Source: a virus (lineage: Duplodnaviria; Caudoviricetes). From it: DNA of 64,000 bases. The notes beneath the pieces are model-generated. The model worked only from the letters and a program-made list of their open reading frames with translations, was not told the origin of the DNA and ran no database searches. The stretch spans positions 1 to 64,000 of the IMG/VR virus record IMGVR_UViG_3300010283_000005. One strand, given 5' to 3'. Of the stretch, positions 18,340 through 21,790 are shown piece by piece. Positions within the stretch are counted from its first letter, which is position 1. Each line of letters opens with the position of its first letter. The translations under genes were made by a program, and so were the position numbers.

Positions 18340-18469
18340 CGGAAGATAGCTCAATAGGGAGAGCATCAGGATTTTAAGTTCATAGTTCCTAGGTTTAGGA
18401 ACTAACAGCAATCGAATTTGAATAAAAATTGGGACCTGAGGGTTATTGGTTCGAGTCCAATTCTTCCGA
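18340..18469 (+). ncRNA. tRNA-Pro(UGG)-like RNA with a 57-nt insert in the anticodon loop
   Basis: acceptor CGGAAGA/TCTTCCG-A (C1-G72, A73), anticodon stem TCAGG/CCTGA, TGG-GA; insert = GGTT hairpin + TAACAGCAA. Confidence 0.8.
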
Positions 18470-18528: not shown

Positions 18529-18552
18529 GTCCAATTGAAAGGAGAAATTACT

Positions 18553-20073
18553 ATGAGTTTTATGAGTGAACTCAAGAATCAACTGGATGACAAGTACAAT
18601 GTCTCAGTCACTGAGAATGGTGCAATCGGATATCGTACTACAACTCATCCGCTACTGGATCTCAACTTTGCAGTAGCATCGTTGCGTTCAGAATCTGAAC
18701 AAAAAATCACTAAGATGTTCCGCTCAGCTTTTGTTGAGAATCCGGAGCTCGCAATCAAGTGGCTATTCTATGCTCGTGATGTAAGAGGTGGTTTAGGAGA
18801 GCGAAGATTATTCCGAGTTATCTTGGAAGATCTGTGCTTTACATATCCTGAGGTAGCTGATAAGATCCTCAGTCTAATCCCTATCTACGGTAGATATGAT
18901 GACCTCGTTCAGCTTGCTACTGGTGAGTGGAGATATCGTGATAAGGTTGTAGATATCCTCAAGACTCAGCTCGAATCTGATCTTGCTCAGATGGAGATTG
19001 GTCGACCTACTTCTCTGCTAGCTAAGTGGATGCCTTCCGTAAATGCAGGTAGAAATGCCCGTGAAGCAGCATTGATGATCGCTGATTCTATGCGACTCAC
19101 TGAGAATCAGTACCGTAGAAAGCTCAGCAAGCTCCGTAAGTACATCGATCTTGTAGAGAGTCACATGTGTGCAGGAGACTGGTCAGGTATCGAGTACTCC
19201 AAGGTACCTTCTAGGGCTGCTTTGATTTACAAGGATGCATTTATGAAGCATGATTCTGATCGATACTCTGAGTATATCGCTCAGGTCGAGGAGGGATCTG
19301 CTAAGATCAATGCTGGTACCTTGTATCCTCATGATATCGTGGCTCGATATAGTCCCTCTGCTCGAGTATCTCGTGCACTTGATTCTACTCTGGAGGCTAT
19401 GTGGAAAGCACTTCCTGAGGTCGATTTATCAGGTAAGCAGATGCTTGTAGTCAGAGATGGTTCAGGCTCAATGTCTTGGCAGAATGCTGGTAAATCCAAT
19501 GTGAACTGCTTGACTGTAGCTACTGCATTGACCATCTACTTTGCAGAACGTACTACTGGTGAGTTCAAGAATAAGTTCATCACGTTCAGTGCTCGTCCTA
19601 AGCTGATCGATTTGCTTGGATGCGATACTCTCCATGATAAGCTCATTAAGACTTATGCTGAAGATGATTGCTCCAATACTGATCTGTACAAAGTATTTAC
19701 CTTAATCCTTGATACAGCAGTCAGTGCTAATATGGATCAATCAGAGATGCCTGAGAATATCCTGATTTTCAGTGATATGGAGTTCGATGGTCATAAATTT
19801 GACTGGGATACTCGTTTATTTGAAGTCATCTCTGATCAGTATGCTCAGCATGGGTATAAGATTCCTAGGCTGATCTTCTGGAATCTGAATAGTCGCACTG
19901 AGACTATTCCTGTGATCAAGAATGAACTTGGACTAGTCCTCACCAGTGGGTACTCAGTTCAGGCTGGCAAAATGATCATGTCAGGTGAACTTGATCCAAT
20001 GAAAGCACTTGAGGATATCCTCAATGCTGATAGATATCAGCCATTATCTGATGCTCTCAATGAGGAGGTGTGA
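18553..20073 (+). CDS. DUF2828-family TROVE/Ro60-like helical domain + vWA protein
   Basis: TENGA, RDVRGGLGER, LAKWMP, INAGTLYP, DGSGSM (MIDAS), SDMEFD, FWNL motifs. Confidence 0.85.
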   Translation: MSFMSELKNQLDDKYNVSVTENGAIGYRTTTHPLLDLNFAVASLRSESEQKITKMFRSAFVENPELAIKWLFYARDVRGGLGERRLFRVILEDLCFTYPEVADKILSLIPIYGRYDDLVQLATGEWRYRDKVVDILKTQLESDLAQMEIGRPTSLLAKWMPSVNAGRNAREAALMIADSMRLTENQYRRKLSKLRKYIDLVESHMCAGDWSGIEYSKVPSRAALIYKDAFMKHDSDRYSEYIAQVEEGSAKINAGTLYPHDIVARYSPSARVSRALDSTLEAMWKALPEVDLSGKQMLVVRDGSGSMSWQNAGKSNVNCLTVATALTIYFAERTTGEFKNKFITFSARPKLIDLLGCDTLHDKLIKTYAEDDCSNTDLYKVFTLILDTAVSANMDQSEMPENILIFSDMEFDGHKFDWDTRLFEVISDQYAQHGYKIPRLIFWNLNSRTETIPVIKNELGLVLTSGYSVQAGKMIMSGELDPMKALEDILNADRYQPLSDALNEEV

Positions 20074-20360: not shown

Positions 20361-20751
20361 GGGGATGTAACGGTATCGATTGGGTTGTGATGCTACGAAT
20401 TCGTCCGAGTGACTACGTAATAGTCAAACTAAAATAAACGCTAAAGTTGTAAACTTTTTCGGAAGTAGAACTGCTGCTTGTGCAGCCTAAGTTCTTCTGA
20501 CGAATTTCAGATGATACTAAGTGCTACAGCCGATGTCTGATCTTATCAAATAAAGTAGTACGGTTTGGTTGGTTATATACATAGAGGAATAACCTGGTGG
20601 ACTAGCAGAAACCTTTCTGCCCCTGATAATCGAAGTGGTTAGAACTTATTGCCATGCTGAAACATTCGATTGAAAATTTGCAGAAAAGTCAACGACGTAA
20701 AGATTTGTAGAGTAGTGATTCAAGACACGGGTTCGACTCCCGTCATCTCCA
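20361..20751 (+). ncRNA. ssrA: tmRNA
   Basis: GGGGATG/CATCTCC-A acceptor with G3:U70; T-arm ACGGG-TTCGACT-CCCGT; ATAAAC then tag frame 20440-20490 AKVVNFFGSRTAACAA*. Confidence 0.93.
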
Positions 20752-20793: not shown

Positions 20794-20823
20794 AGAGGTA
20801 ATTAGGTTTCAGTGGCGTTTATA
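20794..20823 (+). promoter_or_regulatory. phage promoter copy
   Basis: AGAGGTAAT-N13-CGTTTATA. Confidence 0.7.
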
Positions 20824-21091: not shown

Positions 21092-21182
21092 GGTAGTGTG
21101 TCAGAGCGGATGAATGAGACGGTCTTGAAAACCGTTGATGGCTAATAACCATCCGTGGGTTCGAATCCCACCACTACCGCCA
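21092..21182 (+). tRNA. tRNA-Ser(UGA)
   Basis: cloverleaf, ACGGT-CTTGAAA-ACCGT, long variable arm, GCCA end. Confidence 0.93.
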
Positions 21183-21185
21183 TAT

Positions 21186-21271
21186 GGTGAGTTCCCATAA
21201 TCGTTATTGGAGCAGATTGCTAATCTGTCGGTCGAGTAATCGGCTTGAGGGTTCGAGTCCCTCACTCACCG
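21186..21271 (+). tRNA. tRNA-Ser(GCU), CCA not encoded
   Basis: GGTGAGT/ACTCACC; GCAGA-TTGCTAA-TCTGT; long variable arm. Confidence 0.88.
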
Positions 21272-21274
21272 TTT

Positions 21275-21467
21275 GATAATTGAGGGATGTAGGATTAGAA
21301 GCGTCCGTCATCTAAGGAGTGAATTCTGACTATCTGAGCGTTAATACCTCATGTAATTCATACGCTAGTGAGGGTAGCACTGATGTCTAGTCAAGTTGTT
21401 ATAAAGTGCTATCAGATAGTTGACTTGACCATGTGATTCTTAGGCGTAGTAGCACACCTCAGTTATC
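21275..21467 (+). ncRNA. 23S rRNA GTPase-associated-centre (H43/H44) mimic RNA with a 123-nt insertion
   Basis: GGATGTAGGATTAGAAGCGTCCGTCATCTAAGGAGT...GCGTAGTAGCACA closed by an 11-bp stem GATAATTGAGG/CCTCAGTTATC. Confidence 0.8.
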
Positions 21468-21473
21468 TTACTT

Positions 21474-21552
21474 CGGGATGTAGTTCAGTTTGGCTAGAAT
21501 GCGTGATTTGGGATCACGAGGTTCGCAGGTTCAAGTCCTGTCATCCCGACCA
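21474..21552 (+). tRNA. tRNA-Pro(UGG)
   Basis: CGGGATG/CATCCCG-ACCA; CGTGA-TTTGGGA-TCACG. Confidence 0.93.
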
Positions 21553-21567
21553 GAAATCAATCGTCAA

Positions 21568-21597
21568 GGAGTTAATTAAAGTTCCTCGACGTTTATA
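21568..21597 (+). promoter_or_regulatory. phage promoter copy
   Basis: GGAGTTAAT-N13-CGTTTATA. Confidence 0.75.
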
Positions 21598-21626
21598 CTT
21601 CTGTAAGGTTCGAAAGCCTTGCAATT

Positions 21627-21695
21627 TAGGTGCTAACAGCAATTAACAAATAACTTTGAATTCTGATAAACTTCAATCCTTATTTAATGCACCTA
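21627..21695 (+). ncRNA. minimal ACAGCAA RNA presenting an Ile(GAU) anticodon loop
   Basis: TAGGTGC/GCACCTA stem, TAACAGCAA, TTGAATT-CTGATAA-ACTTCAA. Confidence 0.7.
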
Positions 21696-21702
21696 GTAAT
21701 TT

Positions 21703-21788
21703 GAATCAAATAGCTCAATTTGGTAGAGTGCTCGATTCTCCCTTATCCCCGAGTCGAGAGGTAGTAGGTTCGAATCCTACTTGATTCG
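21703..21788 (+). ncRNA. tRNA-like RNA with extended anticodon stem and a C/U-rich 12-nt loop
   Basis: GAATCAA/TTGATTC acceptor, D-arm, GTAGG-TTCGAAT-CCTAC T-arm; CTCGATTC-TCCCTTATCCCC-GAGTCGAG. Confidence 0.7.
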
Positions 21789-21790
21789 CT

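Follow-up and report, generated by a model that had tools for sequence, protein, structure and literature searches.

[quoted passage not shown] The locus is predicted to be a noncoding RNA of roughly 195 nucleotides (nt), the ends of which would fold into a near copy of the uL11-binding region of 23S rRNA. We infer its expression, its processing, its ligand, and its benefit to the phage from sequence, and we see the chances as evenly balanced that, away from the ribosome, it acts as a decoy of the domain that uL11 binds, the likeliest direct ligand being host uL11.

RESULTS

Location and parts of the GAC-mimic RNA

The phage record is that of a complete virus of 142,407 bp with direct terminal repeats, and the window, i.e., the whole stretch that was analyzed, is its first 64 kb (64,000 nt). 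Portal, head protease, major head, tail sheath, and tape-measure proteins are encoded in the window, and these structural genes indicate that the phage is contractile-tailed. The GAC-mimic RNA is present in a single copy across the 142-kb genome. Its parts, all on the plus strand and with 23S positions in E. coli numbering, are the following.

21274-21468, plus strand: whole GAC-mimic RNA (match to covariance model R2 with 86.7 bits and an E value of 9e-27, model positions 1-168 of 168)
21275-21285, plus strand: closing stem, 5' strand (equivalent of the top of H42, 23S 1045-1055), pairing with 21457-21467
21286-21311, plus strand: H43 mimic (1056-1081) with the UUAGAAGCG loop (U1060 is 21290 and A1067 is 21297); 6 of 6 pairs form
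21312-21316, plus strand: 1082-1086 turn, CUAAG, with the tertiary pair C1082:G1086, which covaries in the family
21317-21320, plus strand: lower H44, 5' strand (G1087, A1088, G1089, U1090), supported by family pair counts
21321-21439, plus strand: lineage-specific insert, in which GAAU (21321-21324) pairs with AUUC (21436-21439), with a predicted interior 10-bp helix
21440-21443, plus strand: linker UUAG (family consensus UUUG), its four positions 92-96% conserved
21444-21456, plus strand: upper H44 with the GUAGUA loop (A1095 is 21448), followed by A1101, C1102, and A1103, supported by family conservation
21457-21467, plus strand: closing stem, 3' strand, supported by the pairing list and family covariation

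The E. coli reference sequence was confirmed against rrlH of NC_000913 (positions 1044-1115). In the mapping from E. coli to the window, 1056 corresponds to 21286, 1067 to 21297 (A), the pair 1082:1086 to 21312 (C) and 21316 (G), 1090 to 21320 (U), 1091 to 21444, 1095 to 21448 (A), and 1101 to 21454 (A), and 25 of the 25 pairs of the family structure can form in the window element, including U1090-A1101. A sequence-only reading of this stretch had described an 11-bp closing stem, a position between two tRNA genes, and a 123-nt insertion, and the sequence that it quoted matches the letters of the window. The stem is formed by 21275-21285 with 21457-21467 and includes one G-U pair, the flanking genes encode tRNA-Ser(gct) and tRNA-Pro(tgg), and the insertion (21321-21443) sits between the equivalents of 1090 and 1091. 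The differences from E. coli that had been read as preserving structure (A1064-U1074, A1061, C1082:G1086, and U1090-A1101) are all present. The claim that A1067 and A1095 are retained is correct for the window, and A1095 is invariant in the family, but A1067 is not strict family-wide (A in 88% and G in 9%).

A family of GAC-mimic RNAs in phages of diverse hosts

Members were found by scanning IMG/VR with degenerate GAC patterns, which returned dozens of contigs; the only true 23S rRNA among the matches, L025, scored 2,214 bits as the LSU control. Over 110 distinct relatives were gathered from IMG/VR phage contigs. Inserts range from 22 to 396 nt (median, 127) in the 114 distinct members that have no indels in H43, and a few members carry a second insertion, in the H43 3' strand. 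Thirty additional members were found in bacterial assemblies, including cultured Clostridia (e.g., Flintibacter muris) and assemblies with the MAG labels Acidimicrobiales, Chloroflexota, Nitrospirota, Bdellovibrio, Patescibacteria, Pedobacter, and Methylobacillus. Four cultured phages (Pseudomonas phage pf16, Cronobacter phage GAP32, Xanthomonas phage XacN1, and Aeromonas phage 4_4572) contain unannotated members scoring 86-116 bits; the member of pf16 lies between tRNA-Asn and tRNA-Pro, and that of XacN1 adjoins a 2'-5' RNA ligase gene. About 25 more GenBank records of related large phages match the 5' half and are candidate members. The family is found in strictly lytic large phages.

The members have a common layout. 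A variable closing stem is followed by a copy of H43 and by the stretch 1082-1090, which ends in GAGU; next come the insert, whose length varies, and then a UUUG linker, the H44 loop, and GCACAC. The insertion site lies between 1090 and 1091 in all relatives; the inserts themselves differ between members and fall into recognizable classes, the shortest being a hairpin of about 22 nt. The window copy is an ordinary, slightly divergent family member with a unique insert. Its core is atypical in having G1077 (an A in 98% of the family), G1073 and A1064-U1074 (rarer variants), and the linker UUAG, with a third base A that is found in 3% of members.

Rfam 15 gave no match over the region at gathering score, nor over 21150-21720 at E values of up to 10, and blastn and megablast searches of the element and the surrounding 6 kb against GenBank phages gave no match. 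A viral scan for the H43 variant of the window returned other insert classes only, two metagenome scans returned no close relatives or only relatives of L035, and no relatives of the 123-nt insert were found among the collected loci or in the two metagenome scans.

The GAC fold is maintained by selection

Covariation was tested on 44 members aligned with MAFFT, row 1 being the window element. In the GAC structure, 88% of cells were paired, compared to 66% in 500 shuffles and 34-52% with slid partners. The GAC covariation score was 0.56, compared to 0.15 in shuffles (0 of 500 reached 0.56) and 0.10-0.18 with slid partners. All 12 columns of the closing stem covary; in H43, covariation is seen at four of six pairs, and pairing extends to 100% of cells. 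At the tertiary pair 1082:1086, 19 of the 44 members have U:A, 18 have C:G, and 4 have A:U; G1087-C1102 is invariant, and U1090-A1101 is present in 42 of 44. The conservation of the H43 and H44 pairings that the earlier reading had made decisive was thus found among these 44 relatives, together with covariation of the GAC helices and of the pair 1082:1086.

The unpaired and tertiary nucleotides are conserved as well, at percentages that are upper estimates because the members came from motif scans; however, the scans with 5'-half patterns placed no constraint on A1101 or the linker. In H44, no member departs from the pairs G1091-C1100 and C1092-G1099, conservation is 100% for G1093, U1094, and A1095, and the base at 1101 is an A throughout. 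Like A1095, A1098 is invariant across the family, and 1096 and 1097 vary freely. Conservation is 99-100% for U1060, A1088, G1071, C1072, and the pairs of 1091-1092 with 1099-1100, which we take to form the base triples and cross-strand contacts of the GAC. The same degree of conservation (99-100%) is seen for A1084 and A1085. A1085 forms an A-minor triple with G1055=C1104 (PMC1919483), and A1084 would contact 1054=1105 likewise, by offset from H. marismortui numbering. Accordingly, the two receiving stem pairs, which lie next to the core, are kept G-C (42 of 44 and 43 of 44 members; >90% of members overall), and the remaining stem varies freely.

The family is defined by two covariance models, R1 and R2, of which R2 was built from 30 members, with the window excluded. 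R2 matched the window element at full length and E. coli 23S rRNA with 51.4 bits at exactly 1044-1115, the insert being deleted between A1090 and G1091; an Infernal alignment to H43-H44 of LSU rRNA is the check that had been put forward in the sequence-only reading. Several derived features of the family are absent from E. coli rRNA, namely, the pair of A1101 with U1090, a G at 1089, the linker UUUG, and an insertion site that is fixed. These features recur in phages of unrelated hosts, which indicates that the family evolves independently and is not recaptured from each host. The window element itself gave no LSU match and has tRNA genes as flanks, which sets it apart from bacterial 23S rRNA (RF02541). 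Together, covariation and derived family features strongly support the proposal that the element is a selected fold mimic and not a captured scrap of rRNA.

Thermodynamic folding was calculated for comparison. The fold of the whole element gave a z score of -1.25 relative to shuffles, and by nearest-neighbor energies another fold (-53.4 kcal/mol) is favored over the GAC-constrained fold (-34.6 kcal/mol) in a model that ignores tertiary contacts, ions, and protein; where tertiary contacts are needed for a fold, as here, nearest-neighbor calculations carry no information on it. The atypical G1077 and UUAG linker of the window, and the preference of the nearest-neighbor model for another fold, are observations that speak against a decoy reading.

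The insert leaves H44 through a three-way junction

In the family layout, nothing interrupts H44 on its 3' strand (1099-1102). Immediately after U1090 the extra helix begins, and the chain returns through the four-base linker to G1091, a layout that amounts to a three-way junction that can leave the native H44 stacked. In the family, four of four pairs of the insert's closing helix covary. The complementary words that had been quoted for the insert are all present in the sequence (21328-21337 with 21412-21421, 21375-21381 with 21405-21411, and 21390-21395 with 21424-21429). With the core constrained, the predicted fold of the insert comprises the closing helix, a helix of 21328-21337 with 21412-21421 that is continued by 21375-21381 with 21405-21411, and a side hairpin of 21347-21351 with 21369-21373; the insert does not fold better than its shuffles (z = +0.40).

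Other accounts of the insert region were tried and were not supported. Pairing between 1083-1090 and the segment made up of the insert's 3' end and the linker is compatible in 74% of cells, which equals the shuffled expectation, with zero compensatory changes, and the alternative helix of 1083-1087 with the linker is broken without repair in members with U1086. The insert did not emerge as a copy of other parts of rRNA either: that of the window has no common stretch of ≥8 nt with E. coli 23S rRNA, none with 5S rRNA, and scattered words of ≤10 nt with 16S rRNA, and the family inserts have 256 9-mers in common with E. coli 16S, 23S, and 5S rRNAs, compared to 182-224 in shuffles, so that 9-mer sharing is at chance level. 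Likewise, an SRL-like motif is absent from the window element. Finally, group I and group II intron models gave 0 matches in 21150-21720 at E values of up to 10. The missing intron match, the range of inserts from 22 to about 400 nt that are unrelated in sequence, and their own covarying closing helices argue against excision of the insert.

The RNA lies in a putative transcription unit with tRNAs

All tRNA genes of the window lie within 18.3-24 kb. The features surrounding the GAC-mimic RNA are the following.

20361-20751: tmRNA
20795-20823, plus strand: promoter-like motif GAGG-N17-CGTTTATA, with one mismatch to the phage-specific GAGY-N17-CGTTTATA
21092-21182, plus strand: tRNA-Ser(tga) (ARAGORN and Rfam tRNA)
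21185-21272, plus strand: tRNA-Ser(gct) (ARAGORN and Rfam tRNA)
21474-21552, plus strand: tRNA-Pro(tgg) (ARAGORN and Rfam tRNA)
21569-21597: next copy of the promoter-like motif, just after tRNA-Pro

The motif GAGY-N17-CGTTTATA occurs in 12 copies in the window, compared to 0.45 expected, and its copies bracket a unit consisting of a 64-codon open reading frame (ORF), the two tRNA-Ser genes, the GAC-mimic RNA, and tRNA-Pro. The copy at 20795-20823, a putative promoter, is the likely start of the transcription unit of the RNA. A scan for sigma-70 promoters and terminators gave no result beyond chance. The gaps are 1-2 nt from the 3' end of tRNA-Ser to the element and 5 nt from the element to the 5' end of tRNA-Pro; with gaps this short, tRNA processing would release an RNA of about 200 nt, the mature ends of which are probably at about 21273 and 21473.

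In the family, 48 of 106 loci have a tRNA or tmRNA on the same strand at a distance of ≤150 nt. Among the same 106 loci there is no conserved protein neighbor, the commonest being present at 9. Recurrent neighbors belong to RNA repair and translation; they are a CCA-adding enzyme, an RF-1-domain protein, a Pnkp-like kinase-phosphatase-ligase, a 2'-5' RNA ligase, and DUF2828/DUF7788 proteins. In the window, a Ro60-like DUF2828/DUF7788 gene (18535-20073) lies 1.2 kb upstream of the RNA; genes of this type are nearby at 6 of 106 family loci, and 0 of 32 loci fetched via the protein carry the RNA within 5 kb, and DUF2828/DUF7788 was rejected as an obligate partner. The lack of a conserved partner gene beside the family is a further observation that speaks against a decoy reading. 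The phage genome encodes no uL11 or bL12, so any ribosomal-protein ligand would be that of the host.

DISCUSSION

A possible decoy of the uL11-binding domain

In the mechanism that we propose, the RNA would be transcribed with the neighboring tRNAs from a phage promoter at about 20800 and released by RNase P acting at the 5' end of tRNA-Pro and by 3' processing of tRNA-Ser. Its ends would reconstitute the autonomous uL11/thiostrepton domain (23S 1051-1108, comprising the top of H42, H43, the 1082-1086 turn, and H44), with the 123-nt arm exiting H44 between 1090 and 1091 through the three-way junction and the 3' strand of H44 uninterrupted. In the infected cell, the RNA would adopt the GAC tertiary structure and serve as a decoy off the ribosome, and host uL11, for which precisely this minimal domain is the recognition site, or whatever recognizes the uL11-GAC surface, would be drawn off ribosomes.

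The boundaries of the copy bear on the choice of ligand. H42 below the domain carries much of the uL10 site. The copy ends at the limit of the autonomous folding unit, and H42 below 1051, including the kink-turn, is replaced by a generic helix. uL11 binding needs the GAC tertiary fold, and the domain is compact and folds autonomously (PMC6239185). The copied boundaries thus match the uL11-binding unit, which makes a decoy of the uL11 domain the best-supported reading.

Two more points speak against such a decoy. uL11 sits on assembled ribosomes, and a free RNA might not be able to deplete it within the time of an infection. In addition, the obligatory extra helix and the conserved linker would serve no role in a simple uL11 sponge.

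The roles suggested in the sequence-only reading were uL11 titration and a decoy for ribosome-targeting enzymes or thiopeptides. uL11 is needed for RelA activation, and titration of uL11 that blunts RelA is plausible but speculative. More broadly, large phages of many bacterial phyla might make a miniature factor-binding platform, with a GAC copy in all members and a sarcin-ricin-like hairpin added in some, that sequesters uL11 or decoys a ribosome-directed effector and thereby protects phage translation, for example by blunting alarmone synthesis through RelA or a putative defense against the L11 stalk, a tentative proposal that we think has the balance somewhat against it. If it is true, these RNAs would represent a new class of RNA-based counter-defense that works by rRNA mimicry.

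Alternative explanations

A rather unlikely alternative to a uL11 decoy, although the most credible one, is that a GAC-attacking host enzyme (an ADP-ribosyltransferase, methyltransferase, or nuclease used in antiphage defense or bacterial warfare) takes up the RNA as a decoy or competitive substrate, so that ribosomes are spared. Phage tRNAs substitute for cleaved host tRNAs, and the GAC-mimic RNA is found in tRNA arrays and near genes for a Pnkp-like kinase-phosphatase-ligase, a CCA-adding enzyme, and a 2'-5' RNA ligase, a setting that would suit such a role. There is a precedent for a GAC-directed toxin in Tre23, which ADP-ribosylates H44 of 23S rRNA within 1095-1098, blocks the GTPase of EF-G, and has the isolated L11 stalk RNA region as a target (PMC8661411). 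The targeted loop is conserved in the phage RNA, with A1095 and A1098 invariant in the family, and a few long-insert members add a sarcin-ricin-like hairpin, another classic toxin target. However, Tre23 is a secreted interbacterial toxin and not a phage defense effector, and we know of no defense system that targets the GAC, which counts against a GAC-directed enzyme, as do the free variation of 1096 and 1097 and the G at A1067 in 9% of members. Moreover, such an effector would have to be as widespread as the hosts of the family, the range of which is very broad, from Clostridia and Actinomycetota to Proteobacteria and Patescibacteria.

It is improbable, in our view, that the RNA mimics the factor-binding site and captures EF-G, RelA, or a defense GTPase or nuclease, with the variable arm adding contacts. 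A1067 and A1095, which contact factors, are mostly kept, and the long-insert members L081, L090, L148, and L229 have an SRL-like hairpin (AGUAC-NNNN-GGAA within a stem), a motif that is about 18-fold enriched over the surrounding DNA. Yet this motif is absent from the window insert and from most members (3 of 114 have it), the similarity of the inserts to rRNA is at chance level, and GAC RNA in isolation from the remaining ribosome is not known to hold translation factors.

Equally slim is the prospect that the GAC module with bound uL11 is a stable, nuclease-resistant chassis and the variable insert its working part. Such a design would agree with inserts that vary from 22 to about 400 nt in recognizable classes and with a core that is a compact, autonomously folding domain (PMC6239185), but the shortest members have only a hairpin of about 22 nt, so that the core alone seems sufficient, and the retention of the factor-facing loop nucleotides is hard to explain.

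A nonfunctional origin (a captured or decaying piece of a host 23S gene, an intron-interrupted rRNA fragment, or a duplicated attachment site), for which the high identity to 23S 1056-1103 could be cited, is contradicted and deserves almost no credence, given compensatory changes in every helix, a closing stem unrelated to rRNA, derived features absent from rRNA, no rRNA or intron match in Rfam even at E values of up to 10, the presence of the family in strictly lytic large phages, and two halves that flank the insert, the opposite of the attP layout.

Relation to known RNAs

The bacterial 23S GAC (E. coli 1051-1108, a domain of 58-60 nt) has the same secondary structure as the phage RNA, the covarying pair 1082:1086, the A1067 and A1095 loop sequences, and, in its base triples and A-minor contacts, the same invariant nucleotides. 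Unlike the 23S GAC, the phage RNA is free-standing, lies between tRNA genes, is closed by a helix unrelated to H42, and always has an extra helix and a UUUG linker between 1090 and 1091. At 1101 it has an A paired with U1090 where E. coli has a U, and A1067 is not strict in the family.

The leaders of ribosomal protein (r-protein) genes, such as the L10 leader (RF00557), are likewise off-ribosome RNAs that copy a protein site of rRNA and are able to compete with it; the L10 leader competes with the H42-H44 region for L10(L12)4. They are cis-regulatory, stand before cellular r-protein genes, and are partial mimics, whereas the phage RNA would act in trans, lies in a tRNA array without a nearby r-protein gene, and copies a whole domain including its tertiary contacts. 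The window element has no Rfam match to an r-protein leader, and the next feature downstream of it is a tRNA, so that it does not group with these leaders.

Pseudo-ToxI antitoxin mimics (PMC3475682) and phage tRNA arrays are likewise structured phage RNAs that imitate a host or defense RNA, and the tRNA arrays are also the genomic neighborhood of the GAC-mimic RNA. In contrast to both, the thing imitated here is an rRNA domain that is not swappable into the ribosome and could be a decoy or platform only.

No description of a stand-alone RNA of this kind was found in the searchable literature, and it is absent from Rfam 15; we know of none described that reproduces a functional center of rRNA with its tertiary contacts included. 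As far as we have found, a phage gene that stands alone and encodes a complete copy of such a center is a new type of element. For the GAC fold, the family amounts to a natural experiment, with >100 independent sequence solutions that tolerate a three-way junction in H44, and should be useful for work on RNA structure, and the cultured carriers pf16, GAP32, XacN1, and 4_4572 make the GAC-mimic RNA testable now. A family of this size, spread over phages of many bacterial phyla and located among tRNA and RNA repair genes, would imply that the uL11 stalk of the host is manipulated or shielded by phages, either to control the stringent response or in answer to host effectors directed at the GAC.

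The GAC-mimic RNA is carried by cultured phages

Four phages that have been cultured and sequenced carry full-length members of the GAC-mimic family, the phage RNAs that copy the GTPase-associated center of 23S rRNA, with scores of 86 to 116 bits against the family covariance model and no annotated feature at the RNA stretch in any of the four records.

Full-length family members in cultured phages (locus and positions, phage)
L274:1192-1390, Pseudomonas phage pf16
L272:1190-1443, Cronobacter phage GAP32
L273:1193-1434, Xanthomonas phage XacN1
L275:1192-1485, Aeromonas phage 4_4572

A match to the 5' half was also seen in about 25 more GenBank records of related large phages, whose hosts are Erwinia, Serratia, Yersinia, Pectobacterium, Vibrio, and Pseudomonas.

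Genes and motifs around the RNA in the window

The following features were found.

18340-18469, Rfam tRNA model match
18535-20073, gene for a 512-amino-acid protein (domains DUF2828 and DUF7788), immediately 5' of the tmRNA and tRNA array
20361-20751, phage-encoded tmRNA (88.5 bits), predicted tag AKVVNFFGSRTAACAA
20795-20823, 21569-21597, and ten other sites, + strand, bipartite motif GAGY-N17-CGTTTATA
21703-21789, tRNA called by ARAGORN

The motif occurs 12 times on the + strand (0.45 copies expected), with copies lying upstream of genes and two of them bracketing the tRNA/RNA unit, and is probably a phage-specific promoter. The first tRNA match spans 130 nt, well beyond tRNA length, pointing to a tRNA body whose anticodon arm holds, or lies close to, a large insertion; ARAGORN called no tRNA there. 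The tRNA that ARAGORN called at 21703-21789 (Rfam score, 44 bits), without assigning it an identity, has an aberrant anticodon loop ("cc") and may contain a small anticodon-loop insertion. Of 106 loci with the GAC-mimic RNA, 6 have a member of the DUF2828/DUF7788 gene family nearby, and the RNA was absent from the 32 loci retrieved via the protein.

Variation in the family core and insert

The four-base linker UUUG preceding the equivalent of 23S position 1091 (21440-21443 in the window) is 92 to 96% conserved across the family. It is complementary to 1083-1086, and no compensatory change in this pairing was seen family-wide. In some family members (L109, L141, L142, L110, L083, and L074) the 3' strand of helix H43 contains another inserted hairpin, past the A1077 equivalent, indicating that the core accepts expansion at a second fixed site. 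A compact group with a very short insert (L220, L221, L226, and L230-L235) has an altered H44 loop region, in which …UUGGUCCAGUAGACACAC replaces the usual GCGUAAUAGCACAC.

The sarcin-ricin-like motif was not found in the window's element. It is present in the inserts of L081, L090, L148, and L229, long members with inserts of 300 to 400 nt, as a hairpin with AGUAC-NNNN-GGAA between complementary strands. These members mimic the ribosomal factor-binding site in both of its halves.
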